DNA from: Okeania sp.
GTDB taxonomy: Bacteria; Cyanobacteriota; Cyanobacteriia; Cyanobacteriales; Microcoleaceae
Length of the DNA stretch: 29,062 bases
Direction: 5' to 3'
NCBI RefSeq assembly: GCF_035285525.1
Contig: NZ_JAYKGW010000113.1
Location: forward strand, 1 to 29,062
Each line of letters opens with the position of its first letter. Within the stretch, counting starts at the first letter, position 1. This document shows positions 1-28,178 of the stretch, piece after piece. The notes beneath the pieces are model-generated. The model was not told where the DNA came from. It did not search any database and saw only the letters and a list, made by a program, of their open reading frames with translations. The position numbers and the translations under genes are program-made.

Positions 1-168
1 GAATGAAAATCTCTGACTTAGGAATTTTGACTTTTAACTGTTGAATGAAAATCTCTGACTTAGGAATTTTGACTTTTAACTGTTGAATGAAAATCTCTGA
101 CTTAGGAATTTTGACTTTTAACTGTTGAATGAAAATCTCTGACTTAGGAATTTTGACTTTTAACTTTT
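1..168. repeat. 42-bp tandem repeat, 4 copies (GAATGAAAATCTCTGACTTAGGAATTTTGACTTTTAACTGTT), cut by the window edge
   Basis: Copies 1-42, 43-84 and 85-126 are identical. Copy 127-168 differs only at its 3' end. The array abuts the recO start. Confidence 0.95.
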
Positions 169-181
169 GAATTTAATCTAT

Positions 182-2893: not shown

Positions 2894-2928
2894 TAATTAT
2901 TAATTATTAATTGTTAATTATTAATTAT
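2894..2928. repeat. Heptamer tandem array (TAATTAT)x5, STRR-like
   Basis: Units at 2894, 2901, 2908 (TAATTGT), 2915 and 2922. The array overlaps the last codons and the stop codon of add (2921-2923). Confidence 0.9.
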
Positions 2929-3964
2929 TAAAAGCTTCTGCAACTATAGATTCTGGCTTTAATAATCCTGTTAACATTTCCTGTGGTCTTTTACCATAAG
3001 GCCAAGCAAAAGCATGACGAAAAGCTGCATCTTGACAAGCTTGTAATTCTCGAAAATCAATTACATCAAGTGTCAATAAATTCTCATATTCAAAGGGCAA
3101 ACGTACATTATGTAAACCAGCATTATCTGTACAAATAGCAATATCTACTCCCGCATCAAAACATTTATCAAATACAGTCTTTAATTGAGTAATATCATCC
3201 AGAGTTCCTGTCTTGAAATAGGTAGTCGGACAAACTTCTAAACATTGCCCCCGACTAGCTACTTCTTTTAATAATTCAGGATATTTTAAAGGTATTTGAA
3301 TGCCATGACCAATACGCATTAAATAAGGTAATAATTCTGGATGACAACCATTAGGAGTTTCATACAAATGCCCCGTAGTTTTTACACCTTGTTCACGAGC
3401 ATATTTATAGAGTTTAATAAATTCATCTATCCGTTCTTTGTAATTATTATCTCCTCCAGCCACATCTATAGCACAGACATATTGTGGGATTTGTATTGCT
3501 AAATCCACAATTGCTCGATTAACTTCATCAGGCAAACGAGTATGAGTACATAAAATTTGGCTAGTAACAATAGGATATTCATTCTGTTGAGTTGCCTTAC
3601 CTACAGTCATAACTATTTCTGACATTAAATCTATCCTTTCAGACTGAGATAAATTATCTGGAGTTCTCAAATAAGGAGTATAACGTAACTCTAAATAAGC
3701 TAAATTTTCAAATGTATAAGCACCACGAATTAAGCGATAAATAAAGTATGGTAAAGTCTCAATAGTTTGAACTTTTTCTACTAAAGTATGTAGCTCTAAA
3801 TATTCTTCTAAAGTATTTCGTGGTTTAGTGTAGAAATCTTCAAATTGTTGATATTCAGGAAAAGGATTTGCCAATTCTTGATTTTGCCGTTGGAAATATC
3901 TCCATAAAACTCTAGGAACTACCGAGCCTCCTAAATGTCGATGTAATTCTGCGTGTAAAGCCAT
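2921..3964 (-). CDS. add: Adenosine deaminase family protein
   Basis: 347 aa. The N-terminal HAELHRHLGG is the H-x-H metal-binding motif of adenosine/AMP deaminase amidohydrolases. Size and the C-terminal ICTDNAG region are consistent with this family. Confidence 0.8.
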   Translation of the reverse strand: MALHAELHRHLGGSVVPRVLWRYFQRQNQELANPFPEYQQFEDFYTKPRNTLEEYLELHTLVEKVQTIETLPYFIYRLIRGAYTFENLAYLELRYTPYLRTPDNLSQSERIDLMSEIVMTVGKATQQNEYPIVTSQILCTHTRLPDEVNRAIVDLAIQIPQYVCAIDVAGGDNNYKERIDEFIKLYKYAREQGVKTTGHLYETPNGCHPELLPYLMRIGHGIQIPLKYPELLKEVASRGQCLEVCPTTYFKTGTLDDITQLKTVFDKCFDAGVDIAICTDNAGLHNVRLPFEYENLLTLDVIDFRELQACQDAAFRHAFAWPYGKRPQEMLTGLLKPESIVAEAFNN

Positions 3965-4130
3965 AGAAACTTAATTTATCCTTGATATAATATTTCTTTA
4001 TTCTGGGGAAAAGATGATTAAAATCTGAGAATATTAGGGAAATTAATCATTCACTTTTTATTTGAGTTATTTATGGATTATAGACTCCTTTTTTTTTTAA
4101 TTCCCAAAAGAATAAAAATTAATTATAAAA

Positions 4131-4796
4131 ATGACAGTACAAGATGACAGTCGAGAAAATGAACTTATCCAATTATTTAATTTAGAAAGACCAGTCAATT
4201 TAACTCGTAGTGGAACAGATGCAATCTTGACTTTAAATGGACTAAAAATTCCTTTTGAATTAAAGTCAACTACAAAAAATTCTGTAACTACAGTTAGAGA
4301 TTTTGGACCGGATCATATTAAAAAGTGGAAAGGAAAACATTGGTTATTTGGTTTTTATGAAAAAGGTGGTAAAATCCTAAAATATTGCTTATATGCTTCC
4401 CCAAAAATGATGGTTCCTTAGATTAGTGAAAAATCAGCTTATGTTGCATCAGATTATAAACTTGCTCAATTAATACCAGAATTAATTAGTATATCTTTAC
4501 TGTATAAAATTGTTGGCAAAAAAGAAGTTTATACACTCGAAGATGCTCAGAGTCTACAAAAAAGACAATACACAATTCAAGAATACCGAAATAAAATGGA
4601 TTTAGAATTTGGCTACTCTCCTGAAAGAATGCTTTTGATTTTAAGAGATAGATGTCAATATTTAATTGAGAAAGATTCAACTTTAAATAATCCTCATATT
4701 CCAGCCTCATATTTTAAAGATTGGGAGCAAATAACTACCAATCATGCTCAACATTTAAGAGAACTTGTAACAGAAACTATTCAAGAAAATACTTGA
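4131..4796 (+). pseudogene. Type II restriction endonuclease-like PD-(D/E)XK nuclease, interrupted by an in-frame TAG at 4419-4421
   Basis: Track ORFs 4131-4421 and 4596-4796 are in the same frame, and the frame is open between them apart from the single TAG. GTDAILTLNGLKIPFELKS gives a D-x13-E-x-K arrangement. The gene is convergent with, and overlaps, a C5 methyltransferase. Confidence 0.6.
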
Positions 4797-5304
4797 GCAA
4801 GAGATTTTGGACCGGAGCATATTAAAAAGTGGAAAGGAAAACATTGGTTATTTGGTTTTTATGAAAAAGGTGGTAAAATCCTAAAATATTGCTTATATGC
4901 TTCTCCTAAAATGATGGTTCCTTAGATTAGTGAAAAATCAGCTTATGTGAGATTAGATTATAAACTTGCTCAATTAATACCAGAATTAATTAGTATATCT
5001 TTACTGTATAAAATTGTTGGCAAAAAAGAAGTTTATACACTCGAAGATGCTCAGAGTCTGCAAAAAAGACAATATACAATTCAAGAATACCGAAATAAAA
5101 TGGATTTAGAATTTGGCTACTCTCCTGAAAGAATGCTTTTGATTTTAAGAGATAGATGTCAATATTTAATTGAGAAAGATTCAACTTTAAATAACCCCCA
5201 TATTCCAGCCTCATATTTTCAAGATTGCGAGCAAATAACTACCAATCATGCTCAACATTTAAGAGAACTTGTAACAAAAAATATTCAAGAAAATACTTGA
5301 GCAA
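4297..5304. repeat. 504-bp head-to-tail tandem duplication (4297-4800 and 4801-5304)
   Basis: Both copies begin GAGATTTTGGACCGGA and end AAAATACTTGAGCAA. The period is exactly 504 nt (168 codons). I saw no indels and estimate 15-20 substitutions by eye. Confidence 0.95.
4801..5300 (+). pseudogene. Duplicated 3' fragment of the endonuclease gene (carries the same TAG at 4923-4925; stand-alone GTG ORF 4947-5300)
   Basis: The translation of 4947-5300 is near-identical to the C-terminal part of the 4131-4796 reading frame (…EYRNKMDLEFGYSPERMLLILRDRCQYLIEKDSTLNNPHIPASYF…). Confidence 0.75.
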
Positions 5305-6481
5305 TAGACAGTGCTATTTGATAAGCCATAGGTGGTGGTACAGCATTACCAATTTGACCTAATGCTTGATAAACTGCCCCAGAAAATTGCCAAGATTCAG
5401 GAAAACCTTGAAGGATTCCACAGTCAGGAACAGACAACCGAAAATGACTATTTTTAGCTACAAATAAATGTGCTTTTTCTCTATTTTCAGCTACTCCATT
5501 CGGCCAAATCTGTAATTTTTCCCAAGCTTTTTGTGCAGAAACACTACTTAAAATAGAGGTAGTATGGCGGAGTCCAGTTAGCCCACTTCTGAGAGTAGGT
5601 GATAAAGCATCAAATCCAATATTTGGTAATCCTAAAGCTTCACGAATTCCCATACAAAGTTGCAATTTATCTGTATTTTCATAATCCTCAAAAATATTTA
5701 GTTGAACTGGTTTTGTCGATTGATTTGTTGATAAATGATGCCAACGATGAGTAGGCTTAGGAGGTTGATATTTCGCCAAATATTTTTCATCTCGAAAACC
5801 AACAAAAAAGACTCGTTTTCTAATTTGAGAAATCCCAAAATCTGAAGCATTTAAAATAAATTTCCTCAGTTTATAGTAAGAAGCTAAAGGAGATTCAATA
5901 ACTTCTTCAACATATTTACTAAACTTTTTACTTACCAATGCAGTAACATTTTCTGCCACAAATATTAGAGGTTCAATTTCCAAGACAGCACGAATAAATT
6001 CAGGGAACATATCACGATTATCTTCCTTACCTTTTTGACGACCAGCAACAGAAAAAGGCTGACAAGGTGGACCCCCATGAATAATATCAATTGACCCACG
6101 ATAAGAGCGCCAATCTACTTTTGTGACATCTCCCTTTTCACCTGAAAAAATTTGCCAATCTGGTCGAAGGTTACGCAAAGTATTACCAGCTTCTGGGAGA
6201 ATATCGTAGGAGGAAATATGATTAAAACCTGCTCGGTCAAAACCAAGGTCAAGACCACCACCTCCACTAAATAAAGAGAGACTTCGCCATTTATTTCTAG
6301 GCATTTGTGGCATCAAATTTTCAGGATTTAGATTCGGAATATTAATAGGATGTATTGGTTTTTTACCTTCTCCATTTAAAGCTTGTTTTTTAGCGCGACT
6401 AGATGCTTTTGAACGCTCTCTATAAACTTCTCTTTGTGCTTCAGTAATATTCCAACCTTTATGGGGTGATGCTTTTGACAT
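5285..6481 (-). CDS. DNA (cytosine-5)-methyltransferase
   Basis: Motif I FSGGGGLDLGF, motif IV GGPPCQPFS, motif VI ENV, motif VIII QIRKRVFFVGF, motif IX RLSVPDCGILQGFPESW and motif X GNAVPPPMA appear in canonical order. I prefer the ATG at 6481 (MSKASPHKG) over the TTG at 6511. Confidence 0.9.
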   Translation of the reverse strand: MSKASPHKGWNITEAQREVYRERSKASSRAKKQALNGEGKKPIHPINIPNLNPENLMPQMPRNKWRSLSLFSGGGGLDLGFDRAGFNHISSYDILPEAGNTLRNLRPDWQIFSGEKGDVTKVDWRSYRGSIDIIHGGPPCQPFSVAGRQKGKEDNRDMFPEFIRAVLEIEPLIFVAENVTALVSKKFSKYVEEVIESPLASYYKLRKFILNASDFGISQIRKRVFFVGFRDEKYLAKYQPPKPTHRWHHLSTNQSTKPVQLNIFEDYENTDKLQLCMGIREALGLPNIGFDALSPTLRSGLTGLRHTTSILSSVSAQKAWEKLQIWPNGVAENREKAHLFVAKNSHFRLSVPDCGILQGFPESWQFSGAVYQALGQIGNAVPPPMAYQIALSIAQVFS

Positions 6482-6510
6482 TAGGCAAGATAGATAATGG
6501 ATAATTAACA

Positions 6511-6538
6511 ATTAATAATTAATAATTAATAATTAATA
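6511..6538. repeat. Heptamer tandem array (ATTAATA)x4, STRR-like
   Basis: Units at 6511, 6518, 6525 and 6532, immediately upstream of the methyltransferase gene. Confidence 0.9.
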
Positions 6539-6913
6539 AATAGTGGGTAATGAAAACTATTTCTAGTTAGGGCTGGTGTATGGAAATCTCAAAGCTTTCA
6601 TAGATAAAACTTTTGGTCTTTTTAGATAGTGAGCAAAGTAGCAGATTTTCCCCTGATCAGATAAGAGTGAAAAAGTGAGTATTTGGGTTAAGACTTGAGC
6701 AGAGTTGGCAAGGGATAATTTTTACAAGTACATCCTCTAAAACTCCTGATTCCTCTTGACTCTTCACTACTCCCTACCTCTACCATCAGACTTTTTCAGT
6801 AAACCCTAATTATTAATAGACTTTCAGATTATTGTAACAATAATTAACAAAAAATAATTGACATAACCATAGAGTTGATGGGAGGATTGAAAATTGTGTT
6901 AACTATACTGTAG

Positions 6914-8242
<1,329 letters not shown>

Positions 8243-9072: not shown

Positions 9073-9130
9073 TGAGTGATTGTTGGAGATATCTATTTGG
9101 TATGAGCGGTGCGTTACATTCATTAACGCA

Positions 9131-9385
9131 CCCTACAACATGGCTATGACAGCCTAGAAGGCTGTCTTACAAAAGAACGCACCCTACAACATGGCTATGA
9201 CAGCCTAGAAGGCTGTCTTACAGTTGTGTCAATTCACTACAACATGGCTATGACAGCCTAGAAGGCTGTGTTACAAAAGAACCTACCCTACAACATAGCT
9301 ATGATAGGCAAGATGTCTGTGTTACAAAAGAACCTACCCTACAACATGGCTATGACAGCCTAGAAGGCTGTGTTACAAAGGTTTG
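9131..9385. repeat. ~51-bp tandem repeat, 5 copies, each with a GACAGCC-TAGAA-GGCTGTC hairpin
   Basis: Unit starts (CCCTACAAC) lie at 9131, 9182, ~9235, 9286 and 9337. The fourth copy is the most diverged (ATAGCTATGATAGGCAAGATGTCTGT). Confidence 0.9.
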
Positions 9386-9390
9386 CTCCC

Positions 9391-10398
9391 TTACTTAATT
9401 ATTTGCTCAACTTTATCTGACCAAGTTCCTTCTAGACGGGGGCCTTGAATTTGGACAACATTAGAAGCTAGATAATTTCCCCAAAGTGCAGCTTTAGTAG
9501 GTTCATAACCATGAGTCAAACCATATAACGTACCTCCAGCAAAAGCATCTCCAGCACCAACAGTATCGATCGCTGTTGCCGGAAATCCAGGTACAGTAAT
9601 AATTTGTTTATTATGAACTACTAAACAACCATCTTTGCCATTGGTAATAAAAGCTGTTTCCACCAACTCCCCAATTTTGGCAGCAGATTTTTCTAAAGAA
9701 TCTATTCCTGTAAAACTACGCGCTTCATCAGCATTGCAGAATACTACATCACAATAATTTGAAAGTACCCCACGGAAGTCATCAGCAAACATATCTACCA
9801 AAAATTGGTCTGAGAAGGTAAAACAAACTTTCACTCCTGCACGCTGAGAATCTTCCATAGCTTTAATACAAGCTTGCTTTGTACTTTCTCCAGTCCACAA
9901 ATAACCTTCTACATAACTATATTTACAACGCTTAATTTCCTCTGGATCAATATCACTAACACTGAGATTTACAGATGTTCCTAAATTTGTACACATAGTA
10001 CGTTCAGCGTCGGGAGTTGTGAGTACGACACAAGTACCTGTAGGTTCATCTGCTGTAGGTGCAGCAGCAACATTAAACTCTATTTTTAAGTCCAACATAT
10101 CTTGACGGTAGATTGCTCCGTTTGTATCACTGGCAACTTTGCCCACAAAAATACCTGTTCCTCCACTTTGAGCGATCGCTATCATGGAATTTGCAGCGGA
10201 ACCACCGGAACGTTTTTTTAAGGAGATGTTTTTTAGTCCTGCTAAAATTCCTCCTTGTGTTGGAGCATCCATTAAAGTCATGCCACTTTTTTGCAGGGAA
10301 TATTTTGTGATAAAATCTTCTTCTACAAGTGCGAGGATGTCAACTAGGGCATTACCGACACCGTATACGTCTAATTTTTGGGTGTTTACTGCTGTCAT
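9391..10398 (-). CDS. PfkB-family carbohydrate/nucleoside kinase, adenosine-kinase-like
   Basis: 335 aa with N-terminal VYGVGNALVD and C-terminal DTVGAGDAFAGG (the PfkB ATP/anion-hole motif). The adenosine substrate assignment is an inference from overall resemblance. Confidence 0.75.
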   Translation of the reverse strand: MTAVNTQKLDVYGVGNALVDILALVEEDFITKYSLQKSGMTLMDAPTQGGILAGLKNISLKKRSGGSAANSMIAIAQSGGTGIFVGKVASDTNGAIYRQDMLDLKIEFNVAAAPTADEPTGTCVVLTTPDAERTMCTNLGTSVNLSVSDIDPEEIKRCKYSYVEGYLWTGESTKQACIKAMEDSQRAGVKVCFTFSDQFLVDMFADDFRGVLSNYCDVVFCNADEARSFTGIDSLEKSAAKIGELVETAFITNGKDGCLVVHNKQIITVPGFPATAIDTVGAGDAFAGGTLYGLTHGYEPTKAALWGNYLASNVVQIQGPRLEGTWSDKVEQIIK

Positions 10399-10474
10399 TT
10401 ATTTTTCTATTGTTTGGCCACTTGATTATAATATCATAAAGAGGGAGTAGGAAGTAGGTAATAGCTGCAATAAG

Positions 10475-10505
10475 TGTAGGTTGGGTTGAGGAACGAAACC
10501 CAACA
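10475..10505. repeat. Dispersed hairpin repeat TGTAGGTTGGGTTGAGGAACGAAACCCAACA
   Basis: Same family as 2509, 2589 and 2856. Confidence 0.85.
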
Positions 10506-10632
10506 AATCTTCCGATCACCTAATCTATAACTCCTATTTCTCTTGACTTCACCTCCTAGGAGGGGTTAGGGGTGGATTGACTTCTGACTCCTAACTCCTC
10601 CCACTTAATAAAAGACTTCTATAAGCAAAACC

Positions 10633-10660
10633 TAATTATTAATTATTAATTATTAATTAT
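10633..10660. repeat. Heptamer tandem array (TAATTAT)x4, STRR-like
   Basis: Units at 10633, 10640, 10647 and 10654. The holB stop codon (10657-10659) lies inside the last unit. Confidence 0.9.
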
Positions 10661-11613
10661 TGAATCATCGCCATCAATGTACATTCCCAAACTAACCTGG
10701 GTTGTACATAGGAGAGCAAATATTTTCTGGCTGTCTCTAAATGTTGGAGAAATTCTACTCCGTAAACCTGCTGCCTCCAATAATAATGTTGTAAATAGTC
10801 TATCAACCATAACTGTGCTTCTGTATCCAAATTTTTACTAATATCTCGCCCTACTTCTAATGCTTGACGAGTATTTTGAATACCCTGAGTCGCAACTGCC
10901 AGAATATCTGCCGGAATTTGTTGTAGTTGTTGCCAATAAGCGATCGCTTCTCCTGGACTTCCTTGAGACATTGCTATTACTTCTGGCTTAGTCAAAATTT
11001 CTCCATAACCTGCTTTTTCTAATACTAACTGCATATTTTCCTCAGTCAAACGATAAAAAGGAATGCGTTGACAGCGCGACACCAAAGTTGGTAATAAGGA
11101 GTCAACTCCAGGAGCAATTAAAATTAAAGTCGCTCGTTTTCCTGGTTCTTCCAAAGTTTTCAATAAACCATTTGCTGCACTTTCTCCCATAGTTTCAGCT
11201 TGTTGTAATACCACAACTGATCTTGCTGCTTCTAGGGGAGGGCGACCTAGAAATTGACTAATATCGCGCACTTGTTCCAAACGTATTTGCGGAGGTGACT
11301 TGCGTTTTACTCCTGCTTCTGTTGCTTCTTTTGCTGACAGTAATTTTCCTTGGTGTAGATATGTTGGTTCTACCCAAAGTAAGTCGGGATGGTTTCTTTT
11401 GTGAATGCGATTTTGTAGGGATGAGGTGTTAGGGTTGGGGGAGAGAGTATTGGAGAATAGGAGTTCGATAAAACATTGAGCAGTTAAACCTCGTCCTATT
11501 CCTGAAGGTCCGGCAAATAGATAAGCAGGAGCAATACGTTGGTGAGCTACTGCTTGAGTTAATAATTCTATGGCTTGGTTTTGTCCGATGATAGGAGTAA
11601 ATTGTGATAGCAT
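10657..11613 (-). CDS. holB: DNA polymerase III subunit delta'
   Basis: AAA+ clamp-loader features: GPSGIGRG (Walker A-like), LLKTLEEP and LVSRCQRI (SRC motif). I prefer the ATG at 11613 over the TTG at 11616. Confidence 0.85.
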   Translation of the reverse strand: MLSQFTPIIGQNQAIELLTQAVAHQRIAPAYLFAGPSGIGRGLTAQCFIELLFSNTLSPNPNTSSLQNRIHKRNHPDLLWVEPTYLHQGKLLSAKEATEAGVKRKSPPQIRLEQVRDISQFLGRPPLEAARSVVVLQQAETMGESAANGLLKTLEEPGKRATLILIAPGVDSLLPTLVSRCQRIPFYRLTEENMQLVLEKAGYGEILTKPEVIAMSQGSPGEAIAYWQQLQQIPADILAVATQGIQNTRQALEVGRDISKNLDTEAQLWLIDYLQHYYWRQQVYGVEFLQHLETARKYLLSYVQPRLVWECTLMAMIQ

Positions 11614-11619
11614 CAATTT

Positions 11620-11647
11620 CAGTGATCAGTTATCAGTTATCAGTTTT
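11620..11647. repeat. Heptamer tandem array (CAGTTAT-type)x4, STRR-like
   Basis: CAGTGAT CAGTTAT CAGTTAT CAGTTTT, beginning 7 nt upstream of the holB ATG. Confidence 0.9.
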
Positions 11648-12781: not shown

Positions 12782-13126
12782 CCATGATCTAAACAACAGT
12801 CTTTAGGGCGAGTTTATTATAATTAATAATTAATAATTACCTCTGGTTAAAACCGAGAGATAGTAAACAGGGAGCGGAAATCTGACTTCATTATTAATTA
12901 TTCATTAATTTCTCACCCGCCCCCATGATCTAAACAACAGTCTAACAGGGCAAGTTTATAATAATTAATAATTAATAATTAATTATTAATTATTAATTAT
13001 TACCTCTAGTTAAAACCGAGAGACCTATGCGCAAGAGGCAGAAATCTAATTTCATTATTAATTATTCATTAATTTCTAACCCGCACCCCATGATCTAAAC
13101 AACAGTCTAACGGGGCGAGTTTATGT
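12773..13126. repeat. Tandem repeat of 142/164-bp units (2 full copies plus a partial one) containing an internal heptamer tract of variable length
   Basis: Units start (ACCCGCCCCCATGATCTAAACAACAGTCT) at 12773, 12915 and 13079. The second unit has a longer AATTAAT/TAATTAT run. Confidence 0.85.
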
Positions 13127-14938: not shown

Positions 14939-15093
14939 TGGTTGGATAGTTTTGGTAATTTAACCTTATTCTAGCTACATATTTAACTCTATAATCTTAA
15001 ATCATTTTTAATGATTTTTGGGTTGGTTTTAGTCAGTAGATATTTCTATAAAAGAGGGAATCAGCAATTATGAAATCATTCGTGATCAAAAAT

Positions 15094-15118
15094 TGTAGGG
15101 GTTTGGTCTCCAAACCCA
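15094..15118. repeat. Dispersed hairpin repeat TGTAGGGGTTTGGTCTCCAAACCCA
   Basis: Same sequence as 1049-1072. An inverted copy lies at 15407-15429, with variants at 27993-28004 and 28033-28050. Confidence 0.85.
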
Positions 15119-15212
15119 GATGCCGACAGATTTAGAGACAAGACCTCTACGATAAAATTCTACAAATTATTTAGAATTGCCATAATTGATAATTTATGAA
15201 TAAAAATTGATC

Positions 15213-16691: not shown

Positions 16692-16900
16692 GGGTTTGGC
16701 TAGAAAACCGCCTACACAAAATTAATCAATTGTGTCATTTTAGTAGTGGATTAATACAAATAATTCTGGCATGCATCTCATATTTGCCAAAATACTTTTT
16801 TTTCTATTTAGACATCTTCAAAAATAAAAAATTCAATCAATTATTATCGAGAAATTATGAATTACTTCTCCTTATTGCCTATTGCCCCCATACCTATTCC

Positions 16901-18721
16901 CTATTCTCTAATTTTCAATTCATCAATATTCCAAAAAGCACCGCCAATGGCAGAAAATTTTAAATTATCAATATGATTACGAATTGCTTGAAGTGAAAGA
17001 GGATTTACTAAAAAAAATATAGGCAATTGTTCGGCAACAATTTTTTGAAATTCCCCATAAATTTCCCGGCGTTTATTTTCATCTACTGTCTGATATCCAG
17101 CAGTAAATAATCGGTCAATTTCTTTTTCCCAGTCAGAAACTTGCCAATTTTTAATTGGTGGTTCACCAGGTCTAGAACCCAAATTAAACTGATGAAATGA
17201 ACCTTGACTTGACCAAAGCAGGGAAAGTAAGTTTGGTTCAAAGTCAGAGCCAGGAACACCAAAAGCTCCGACATAACATTCCCAATCTCTAGTCAATAAT
17301 AGCTTTTGTAAAACAGTGTTGAAGTTAAGTATCTGTAAATTTCCTTTAATTCCGATTTGACTTAAATCTTCTTTGATTTGAACTGCTGTATCTATTCGTA
17401 GTTTTTCTTCAGATTTTACTAAAATTGTAAATTCTACTTGGTTGCCATTTTCATCCAATAATTCATTAACATTATTATATTTAAAACCAGCGTCTAATAA
17501 TATTTTTTTTGCCTTTTTCGGGTTGTATTGATAAACCTTTAATCCTGATTTTGGAGATAAATAATAAGGACTGTTTACCCCTAAAGCAGAATGTTGTATT
17601 TCCCCTAAACCGCGATAAATGTTATTATTAATTCGTTGGCGATTAATGCCATAAGCAACTGCTTGTCGGAATGCTAAATTATTAAACCAACTAGACTTAA
17701 TAGGATCTAAAAAAGGTTTACCTTGAGAATTTATTCCTTGATTAAGATTAAAACCAACAAATTGATAGCCTCCCTGAGGACCACCATTATAAATCTTATA
17801 TTTGCCTCGTTTTTCTTCTCGCTTAAGTAATTGAAATGCTTCGGCATCTACTCTAATACTATCTAATTCCCCTGAACGAAATCTTAGCAATTGATTGTCA
17901 GTTGATGGAATAATTTGAATGATAATTTTATCTAGATAAGGAAGAGATTCACCTGCTGAGTCAGAACGCCAATAAAAGGGATTTTTCTGTAAAACTATTC
18001 TTTGAGAAGGAATATAATTTTCCAGTTTAAATGCACCATTACTAATGATTTTTTCTGGTTGTGTATTTGTATTCCAGATTGATAAAAATAGAGGTTTACC
18101 ATCAGCATCAGTTGCAGAAACACTATCCCGTAAAGCATGAGCTGGTAAAATTTTTAATCTTAATATGTACCTGAGAAATGGAGCAAATGGTTCGGGTAAA
18201 ATAAACTCTATTCGACGTTGGTCTATTTTTTTTATAGAGGGAAAAGCACCACTACTACCAATTCTTAAAAAGTCTCTGTAGACAGTAGGAATTTTTTGAT
18301 TTAGATAAATATCTTGATAGGTAAATACAACATCATCAGCAGTTAGAGGTTCTCCATTAGACCATTTTAATTCTGACCTTAAAGTAAAAATAATCCGCTT
18401 TTGATCTTCAGAGAAAATCCAAGATTCTGCTAAGGCAGGTTCTAATTCTCCAGTTAAACCATTTTCTGACATTAATCCTTCGTAAATATATCCAAAAATT
18501 CCGTAGGGAGAACGAGATATAGGATAGTTAAAAGTAGATGGAGGAGTTGGGTTAACTAACACTAATTTTGAGTTATCGTTACTCTGGGAGTTTAATAATG
18601 TTGAGCGACAACTACTGGTCATAATTAATAGACAAAATAATAGAATCCCTACTAAAAAGAGTCGGACTCTAAAAATAGTAAATCTATGAATATTTTGATT
18701 TTGGTTTTTACTTTCTAACAT
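16901..18721 (-). CDS. ABC transporter substrate-binding protein, family 5 (peptide/nickel type)
   Basis: 606 aa with an N-terminal hydrophobic signal ending LIMTSSC (possible lipobox). The WSNGEPLTADDVVFTY motif is typical of SBP_bac_5 proteins. Confidence 0.8.
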   Translation of the reverse strand: MLESKNQNQNIHRFTIFRVRLFLVGILLFCLLIMTSSCRSTLLNSQSNDNSKLVLVNPTPPSTFNYPISRSPYGIFGYIYEGLMSENGLTGELEPALAESWIFSEDQKRIIFTLRSELKWSNGEPLTADDVVFTYQDIYLNQKIPTVYRDFLRIGSSGAFPSIKKIDQRRIEFILPEPFAPFLRYILRLKILPAHALRDSVSATDADGKPLFLSIWNTNTQPEKIISNGAFKLENYIPSQRIVLQKNPFYWRSDSAGESLPYLDKIIIQIIPSTDNQLLRFRSGELDSIRVDAEAFQLLKREEKRGKYKIYNGGPQGGYQFVGFNLNQGINSQGKPFLDPIKSSWFNNLAFRQAVAYGINRQRINNNIYRGLGEIQHSALGVNSPYYLSPKSGLKVYQYNPKKAKKILLDAGFKYNNVNELLDENGNQVEFTILVKSEEKLRIDTAVQIKEDLSQIGIKGNLQILNFNTVLQKLLLTRDWECYVGAFGVPGSDFEPNLLSLLWSSQGSFHQFNLGSRPGEPPIKNWQVSDWEKEIDRLFTAGYQTVDENKRREIYGEFQKIVAEQLPIFFLVNPLSLQAIRNHIDNLKFSAIGGAFWNIDELKIRE

Positions 18722-18980
18722 TGGGAAAATTATTGGGGAAAATTTGTTTGGTTTATACTATAGCAATCCTATTTTCTTTGTGTATAAAAATCTTACCGCT
18801 TTTAGGGAACGGGGAATAGGAAATAGGAAAAATACTTTTTTCCAAAATGGATGAACCACATTGCCATAAGCAAAATCTAGTAGGGAAGTTGCATAAGGGC
18901 GTCTCTACTGTGGTTTAGCGAAATGAAAACTGCTACAGGAAGACCAAGAGAAAAAAATCAAGGAACAATTATTCTTCTCA

Positions 18981-19097
18981 CACCTCCCACCCGGACCACA
19001 CCTCCCACCCGGACCACACGAACCACATCTTCCACACTCCCCACACCTCCCACCCGGACCACACGAACCACATCTTCCACACTCCCCACACTCCAGA
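18981..19097. repeat. C-rich 9-nt-periodic array (13 nonamers, consensus CAC-NNN-CCA) with higher-order structure A-A-B-A-B (A = 18 nt, B = 27 nt)
   Basis: A = CACCTCCCACCCGGACCA at 18981, 18999 and 19044. B = CACGAACCACATCTTCCACACTCCCCA at 19017 and 19062. By hand count 74 of 117 nt are G/C (about 65 C and 9 G on the plus strand). Confidence 0.9.
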
Positions 19098-27819: not shown

Positions 27820-27861
27820 ATAATTGATAATTGATAATGGATAATGGATAATTGATAATGA
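27820..27861. repeat. Heptamer tandem array (ATAATTG/ATAATGG)x6, STRR-like
   Basis: Units at 27820, 27827, 27834, 27841, 27848 and 27855. The array starts 4 nt upstream of the nagB-like ATG. Confidence 0.9.
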
Positions 27862-28031
27862 AAACTATAGCAATCGTAAATAGATAGTGAGATTTTATGG
27901 TAGGGGTTTGGTTGCCAAATCCCTTTGGGTTTTGGTTTGGATAATTGATAATGAAAACTATAGCAATCGTAAATAGATAGTGAGATTTTATGGTAGGGGT
28001 TTGGTTGCCAAATCCCTTTGGGTTTTGGTTT
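27848..28031. repeat. 93-bp tandem duplication (2 copies)
   Basis: ATAATTGATAATGAAAACTATAGCAATCGTAAATAGATAGTGAGATTTTATGGTAGGGGTTTGGTTGCCAAATCCCTTTGGGTTTTGGTTTGG occurs at 27848 and again at 27941. Confidence 0.9.
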
Positions 28032-28178
28032 TGAGACCAAACCCCTACAGTTTTTTTCACGAATAATTTCTGATAGCTATATCTCTGATTATAGTTAGCT
28101 GAAAAAGTCTTTTTTTCAAGGTATAAATCAAGAATCAGAATAACAAACCAGGTTTCTATTTAATCTTTGATGATGTGA

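Follow-up and report, generated by a model that had tools for sequence, protein, structure and literature searches.

How far has a restriction-modification system decayed when its endonuclease gene carries a nonsense codon and lies partly duplicated, and what becomes of the methyltransferase next to it? The question is raised by a locus in DNA of Okeania sp. (contig NZ_JAYKGW010000113.1), of which the 29,062 nucleotides (nt) analyzed are called the window here. Positions 4131-6481 are very probably a type II restriction-modification (R-M) cassette of two genes, a restriction endonuclease gene (R) with the PvuII fold and a convergent C5 cytosine DNA methyltransferase gene (M), in which R died and was then partly duplicated. 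The methyltransferase may still be methylating DNA as a de facto solitary enzyme.

The duplication was established by comparing 4297-4800 with 4801-5304 at an offset of 504 nt, or 168 codons. The two segments are head-to-tail copies that differ at 15 positions and have no indels (97.0% identity), which agrees with the roughly 15-20 substitutions counted by eye in an earlier note on this DNA. A repeat finder listed the identical family with a spacing of 504, and outside the limits 4297 and 5304 the flanking DNA of the two sides is unrelated. The junction homology consists of a single A (4296/4800/5304), and the junction between the copies reads ...ACTTGAGCAA followed directly by GAGATTTTGG. No third copy was found by self-BLAST of 4131-5304 against the whole window; Tandem Repeats Finder misses the 504-nt repeat because its longest period is 500. 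Copy 1 (4297-4800, plus strand) holds R codons 56-221, the stop codon and the final 20 nt of the M gene, so that a stray M 3′-end (minus strand) stands at 4781-4800 with bases identical to 5285-5304. Copy 2 (4801-5304, plus strand) ends 20 nt inside the M gene. Both points had been read correctly in the earlier note.

Translation of the frame from 4131 to 5300 met four stops, TAG at 4419-4421, TGA at 4794-4796, TAG at 4923-4925 and TGA at 5298-5300. The open reading frame (ORF) that begins at 4131 ends at the first of these after 96 codons (4131-4421, plus strand), and the same frame then stays open to the TGA, which gives the conceptual product of 221 residues proposed before (4131-4796, plus strand, TAG at codon 97). 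The TAG is present in both copies, as had also been noted. Ancestrally, the end of R at its stop codon and the convergent M overlapped by 16 nt.

The read-through product, with X at the TAG, had 930 database matches, most of them exactly 221 amino acids long, which cover 96-100% of the query with identities up to 90% and which the sources name only as 'hypothetical protein'. Where the window has the TAG, two alignments, one with 19 members and one with 46, show an invariant Trp; the change is therefore TGG>TAG at codon 97, found on the plus strand in copy 1 (4419-4421) and at the equivalent codon of copy 2 (4923-4925). R181 and G182 are, like W97, invariant in the 46 diverse members. An AlphaFold2 model of an intact homolog, P0001 (mean predicted local distance difference test score 92.2), was compared with the PDB by Foldseek, and the top 12 matches were all PvuII (probability 1.0, best E 2.6e-5), with a core of ~100 residues superposing at 2.0-2.4 Å. 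In an hhalign comparison, for which the PvuII sequence was checked against the PDB, family residues 16-78 aligned with PvuII 46-106 (E 9.2e-5), placing D30, E43 and K45 on PvuII D58, E68 and K70. The C-terminal pattern DLEF.Y..ER...NNP.IP..Y aligned with PvuII 118-147 at a score that was reached by 35 of 2000 shuffles (P ~0.018). As modeled, the family is a PvuII homolog in which ~65 additional residues, helical for the most part, separate the core from the NNPxIP segment. The earlier note had recognized a D-x13-E-x-K arrangement typical of PD-(D/E)XK enzymes; the catalytic residues are indeed PvuII-like, but their spacing is D30-x12-E43-x-K45. All three lie in the remaining 96-codon ORF, which the TAG truncates just past the β-sheet core, removing the long helix 91-118 and the entire C-terminal helical and recognition part. 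In some apparently intact homologs, a helical module of ~61 amino acids that constitutes the insert relative to PvuII (R residues ~115-175, about 4473-4655) occurs in in-frame tandem copies, three in P0042 (344 amino acids) and two in P0111 (287 amino acids). A change in the copy number of this module might alter spacing or specificity.

The order of the events could be approached by comparing the two copies with five close relatives. The copies share seven derived substitutions, four of which are G>A replacements (W97*, E126K, R181K and G182D), and R181 and G182 are family-invariant. Since W97*, R181K and G182D are among the shared changes, the gene was most likely dead before it was duplicated, and the nonsense mutation most likely came first. 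This is the parsimonious choice between the two routes that the earlier note had left side by side. Of the other, gene conversion from one copy to the other, no sign was seen in how the differences are spaced, the longest identical tract being 119 nt, about the expectation for 15 random differences by a hand estimate. At least six, possibly up to nine, polarizable changes are derived in copy 2, including S107L, W198C and T216N. At a distance of 0.030, the copies are about one fifth as far apart as the cassette is, by synonymous distance, from locus L001, its nearest relative (0.14-0.15); therefore, the duplication is not recent. The history that these comparisons suggest would begin with the TGG>TAG change at Trp97 and the replacements R181K and G182D at invariant residues. 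A slippage-type, illegitimate event would have followed, with a single nt of homology at the junction, and would have added a tandem copy of the 504 nt that run from codon 56 past the R stop codon to 20 nt inside the M 3′-end, leaving the true end of M intact beside copy 2. Subsequently, the two copies would have drifted apart by 3%.

The M gene occupies 5285-6481 on the minus strand (398 codons plus the stop codon at 5285-5287), and its frame is open with every motif present. The start had been placed at a TTG at 6511; the ATG at 6481 is likelier, as it yields the 398 residues found in all relatives. Residues 66-393 match PF00145 (2.7e-58) and TIGR00675 (1.4e-48). Motifs I, IV, VI, VIII, IX and X, which the earlier note had listed, were seen in the alignment as FSGGGG, PPCQPFS, ENV, QIRKR, RLSV..LQGFP and GNAVPPP; FSGGGG, AENV and GGPPCQPFS with the catalytic Cys are invariant columns, all kept in the window protein. 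The best solved relative by sequence is M.HaeIII (5.8e-37, residues 68-243), and the target-recognition region, residues about 245-345, gave no informative match. Homologs at E <= 1e-30 made up 3092 of the 8000 candidates scored, and the homologs listed cover 97-100% of the query with identities down to about 55%. The basic N-terminal extension of ~65 amino acids (residues 1-65, 6287-6481, minus strand) that had been called unusual is present, but this locus is no exception: the whole family conserves it, 40 of 40 aligned members keeping it with invariant R17, S27, G37, P42, P49 and L51. No Pfam domain was found before residue 66. AlphaFold2 predicts a single long basic helix (14-35) followed by ordered coil (36-65), and a regulatory role as a helix-turn-helix was rejected because the predicted structure has one helix. 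Pairwise ratios of non-synonymous to synonymous divergence (dN/dS) between the window M and its relatives are about 0.2. Its own branch carries 13 synonymous and 20 non-synonymous changes (~0.44), a value below neutrality and above that of most relatives. The gene shows an open frame and, to judge from these substitutions, some purifying selection on its own branch, and the enzyme is plausibly active.

Several results weigh against this account of a dead nuclease beside a surviving methyltransferase. PF09225 (PvuII) was reached by only one of the 46 homologs (E 0.012), the other 45 and the window protein missing it at the thresholds used, and a sequence-profile search of the PDB returned chance matches only. 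Pfam and NCBIfam likewise had no match for the window read-through protein or its fragments, and the identity as a nuclease therefore rests on the fold, the hhalign alignment and the gene context. Precomputed PF09225.18 matches are listed for roughly one third of the homologs, and a tblastn search of plasmids with the endonuclease gave no match. A profile search of the 221-residue product, suggested earlier as a check, thus yielded nothing in Pfam and REase_II in PADLOC at E 0.007 only, but the nuclease reading was upheld by the fold search and hhalign. The 15 differences between the copies divide into seven synonymous and eight non-synonymous ones, slightly fewer replacements than under strict neutrality, although the numbers are too small to carry weight. 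In the methyltransferase, two prolines that all of 39 homologs keep are uniquely replaced, P218S in motif VIII (GxPQxRxR; codon 5829-5831, minus strand) and P304L in the conserved target-recognition stretch LTGPRHTTS (codon 5571-5573, minus strand); other, presumably functional, homologs show 0-4 deviations at invariant sites. These two replacements may be first signs of relaxed constraint, or they may mark a weakened enzyme that favored the loss of R. Finally, look-ups of the exact add, M and purA products of the window led to Logan contigs of a single run, SRR19514071, and to nothing else. The assembly may itself come from that run, so that Logan is an independent assembler but not independent DNA, and the 24-mer across the copy junction was not found in JGI (Joint Genome Institute) metagenome contigs.

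The last two points would suit an assembly artefact, in which the genome holds a single R copy and the tandem was made by mis-joined strain variants or by repeat expansion; the organism is found in one public run only, and the tandem arrangement is known here from assembled contigs alone. We consider it unlikely. There are 15 differences between the copies, and the junction that joins them is non-homologous, with 1 nt shared, which a mis-join of haplotypes would not yield; the window also contains several further tandem duplications. The Logan contigs, built with k=31, are the more telling. The contig with add (L018) equals window 2903-4343 and the one with M (L016) equals window 5247-6522, and their ends fall exactly at the last and first 31-mers that are unique in the window, the repeated 31-mers starting at 4314 and the last of them at 5246. 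The end at 4343 had been predicted from the k=31 logic before the look-up. That a second assembler breaks at the outer limits of the repeat is evidence against an artefact. Moreover, the left contig continues past base 4313, which is specific to copy 1, for another 30 nt, as expected of a repeat entered from different left contexts and not of a single-nucleotide-polymorphism bubble between strains with a common left flank. Also unlikely is an origin of the second copy from a cassette fragment of a related strain that integrated by illegitimate recombination beside the resident one. The cassette has clearly been exchanged between lineages, with a synonymous divergence (dS) of 0.14-0.15 vs 0.42-0.63 for the flanks, and at 4313, 4403 and 4716 (less clearly at 4556 and 4694) copy 2 has the common state of the relatives and copy 1 is the odd one. 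Against this stand the seven derived changes, including the TAG, that are common to both copies and occur in none of the five relatives, so that the donor would have to belong to the same pseudogene lineage; a simple tandem duplication would also give what is seen, copies exactly head to tail with nothing added between them.

Another explanation makes the duplication adaptive, the 96-residue core and a C-terminal piece reassembling into a split but working enzyme. A change in copy 2 had been reported to open a stand-alone 117-residue ORF with a GTG start (4947-5300, plus strand). This ORF exists and corresponds to R residues 105-221 of copy 2, and its GTG, which arises from a four-base cluster at 4949-4954 (GAGATT), is a derived change specific to that copy. 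The two ORFs would thus jointly cover R residues 1-96 and 105-221. The ORF nevertheless has no support as a gene and is best taken as a mechanical one. Both copies bear R181K and G182D, at two sites where the 46 homologs never vary, a nearly invariant Trp is further lost in copy 2 by W198C, and the break would lie inside the long helix 91-118. By eye, no Shine-Dalgarno-like sequence was seen just upstream of the GTG, and no promoter-like site was found between the copy-2 TAG and the GTG by a scan that does not cover ribosome-binding sites; overall, the promoter and terminator scan of the locus did not rise above shuffled expectation. There is no record of the 117-residue product, exact-product look-ups of the 96-, 117- and 66-residue ORFs having found nothing, and in relatives R has been destroyed outright by other routes. 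We find a working split enzyme scarcely credible. It is also improbable, if less so, that the 504-nt insert has been kept because it moves transcription from the R promoter further from the M 3′-end and adds a stop codon and a decoy tail, relieving interference by convergent or antisense transcription of an M that works as a solitary enzyme. If true, such relief could explain how an unstable, 97%-identical repeat survived to 3% divergence. The preferred reading, a duplication within an R gene that was already dead, makes the phenomenon an ordinary one with nothing categorically new in it: a duplication across the overlap is a mechanistically ordinary illegitimate event in a pseudogene.

The fate of the cassette can be followed in its relatives. 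Species-representative genomes were scanned for it, which gave 15 loci. The nearest, L001, is in a Microcoleaceae metagenome-assembled genome (MAG; 94% nt identity), and others are in Okeania, Dapis and Trichodesmium, with distant ones in a Margulisiibacteriota single-amplified genome (SAG) and a Thiomargarita MAG. These relatives place the organism in the Microcoleaceae (Trichodesmium/Okeania/Dapis) and not, as had been thought, among the Nostocales. None of their loci has the 504-nt duplication. The convergent R/M pair recurs in L001-L006, L010, L011 and a viral contig (L019), and this tail-to-tail pairing is found in cyanobacteria, the Margulisiibacteriota SAG, the Thiomargarita MAG and the viral contig. 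Both genes are intact in L003, L004, L006 and the Okeania locus L002, where R spans 10001-10666, and in L001 R is intact and M is open up to the contig end. R is broken and M open in the window, in L005 (a 269-nt insert in R) and in L012 (two copies of a 133-nt element). Decay has gone further in L007, with three nonsense codons in R and a fragmented M; in L008 and L013, with repeat-element insertions and deletions in both genes; in L014, with a deletion from about R codon 42 into M; and in L009, where only an internal R fragment is left. A live R beside a dead M occurs at none of the loci, which is what the toxicity of the enzyme would lead one to expect. Among the lineages without a working R, M is thus open in L005 and L012 and broken or lost in L007, L008, L009, L013 and L014. 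These states suggest that the combination of a dead R and an open M is usually on the way to losing both genes and is not a stable solitary methyltransferase. The claim of the earlier note that an R-M system was caught turning into a solitary methyltransferase holds for the window as far as the dead R and the open M go, but in relatives this state commonly ends in the loss of both.

The disrupting inserts are short repeated elements resembling miniature inverted-repeat transposable elements (MITEs), with heptamer arrays of the CAGTTAT, GGGAACA and CCCTATT types. They lie at L005 10100-10368, L012 450-582 and 785-917, L008 6010-6206 and 7160-7322, and L013 11430-11725. Related copies of some of them occur elsewhere in the window (11616-11645, 15063-15211, 16800-16903 and 27847-28082). 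The window also has arrays of the heptamer ATAATTA/TAATTAT at 2894-2931, 10633-10661, 12959-13002, 27820-27859 and 6494-6539, the last of these directly upstream of the M start codon and at the end of Logan contig L016. In or close to intergenic DNA there are further tandem duplications, at window positions 1-172, 2461-2619, 9130-9379, 18979-19091 and 27845-28031, with units of 42 nt x 4.1 (99%), 80 nt x 2 (94%), 51 nt x 4.9, 45 nt x 2.1 and 93 nt x 2 (100%). These several smaller duplications suggest a general propensity for slippage-type events.

The cassette lies between add (adenosine deaminase, 2921-3964, minus strand) and purA (adenylosuccinate synthetase, 6923-8242, plus strand), both of which were confirmed as the flanking genes named in the earlier note; add is the same flank in L001 and L013, and purA in L013. 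Measured against L001, the window has a dS of 0.63 in add but of 0.147 in R and 0.137 in M. Against L013, dS reaches 0.42 in add and 0.62 in purA, while the two cassettes are 90-93% identical. Synonymous divergence of the cassette is about fourfold below that of the flanking add and purA. In Okeania and Dapis, the cassette stands in other flanking contexts, and R homologs (40-52% identity) occur on the predicted IMG/VR viral contigs L019-L024. One of these, L019 (5992-7801, IMG/VR UViG_2816332600_000005), repeats the arrangement of a convergent and overlapping R and M, and its methyltransferase has the same N-terminal extension. The low cassette dS, the other contexts and the viral-contig members therefore point to exchange after the lineages diverged, and the comparison indicates that the cassette was passed among Microcoleaceae lineages after their split, at the same add/purA site. 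Horizontal acquisition had been proposed before from the lack of HIP1 sites and from AT-richness. Neither cue is diagnostic, but the idea itself gains support from the low dS of the cassette and the differing flanks in Okeania and Dapis. The module has no HIP1 site against 1.2 expected (P(0)=0.29), and the GC content at third codon positions is 0.149 for R, 0.163 for M and 0.153 for add, with purA as the outlier. With that P value and with R and M equal to add, both cues were rejected as evidence of foreign origin.

That restriction genes die first and methyltransferases linger is a known pattern. What is worth keeping from this locus is the poorly modeled PvuII-like family, the variable number of helical modules in its intact members and the parallel decay series. 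The family is a large one that Pfam, NCBIfam and PADLOC fail to match with confidence; therefore, genome surveys could wrongly score the methyltransferases of intact partners as orphans. One cassette can be followed in this clade along a natural series of separate routes of decay, by nonsense mutation, tandem duplication, insertion of repeat elements and deletion. A tandem duplication that is old and diverged and lies in a bacterial pseudogene is also a small data point on weak purging in this lineage. Trichodesmium-type genomes tolerate much non-coding DNA (PMC4649490).

Compared with known systems, the locus has the gene content and the conserved pairing of a type II R-M system, though with one of its two genes broken. 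R.PvuII, which cuts CAG^CTG (PDB 1PVI/1PVU/1F0O; Pfam PF09225, Endonuc-PvuII), is the best and only strong fold match of the R family. The two share the fold, the catalytic residues and the motifs G(T/N)DA, (F/Y)ELKS and (H/P)W(L/I)F.(F/I)Y, while the window protein stays below the PF09225 threshold. R.PvuII has 157 amino acids and the R family 221, the ~65 helical residues being absent from R.PvuII and the module being present two to three times in some R-family homologs. The His83-85 recognition triad of R.PvuII is replaced by V-R-D, and the putative counterpart of the Asn140/141 loop, the NNPxIP segment, is kept (the shuffle P of ~0.018 applies to this alignment). His84 of PvuII contacts the N4-methyl group that gives protection and is the residue by which this group is sensed (PMC4705667). 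R.PvuII is partnered by an N4 methyltransferase and the R family by a C5 enzyme; with the triad replaced and a C5 partner, the specificity is expected to differ from CAGCTG. No recognition site could be assigned to the cassette from palindrome avoidance in the window and 11 clade loci (182 kb). Several palindromes are depleted there (observed/expected: TTCGAA 0/20, GTCGAC 1/12, GAGCTC 0/9, GTGCAC 0/9, ACATGT 0/7 and GGCC 99/177), as would fit a clade that has, or once had, many R-M systems. A paper on the Trichodesmium 5-methylcytosine methylome places the differentially methylated cytosines in CpG and links no motif to the window enzyme.

The window methyltransferase has all catalytic motifs in common with the solved enzymes of the M.HaeIII and M.HhaI type (PF00145, TIGR00675), which have no counterpart of its family's ~65-residue extension before motif I. 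Type II C5 methyltransferases of the M.SsoII, M.EcoRII and M.MspI type do carry an N-terminal regulatory extension, and the likeness lies in an extra segment of some 60-70 residues. In the M.SsoII type, however, this segment is a helix-turn-helix and the genes are divergent, whereas the window family has a predicted single long helix and convergent genes. Solitary methyltransferases that derive from decayed R-M systems are a concept from comparative genomics, reportedly described by Seshasayee et al. (2012) and by Oliveira et al. (2014). The window resembles them in its inactivated endonuclease gene and open methyltransferase frame, and the lethal reverse state occurs at no locus. It differs in that M has also been broken or lost at five loci of this clade, and the solitary state therefore looks transient, not recruited for a new role.

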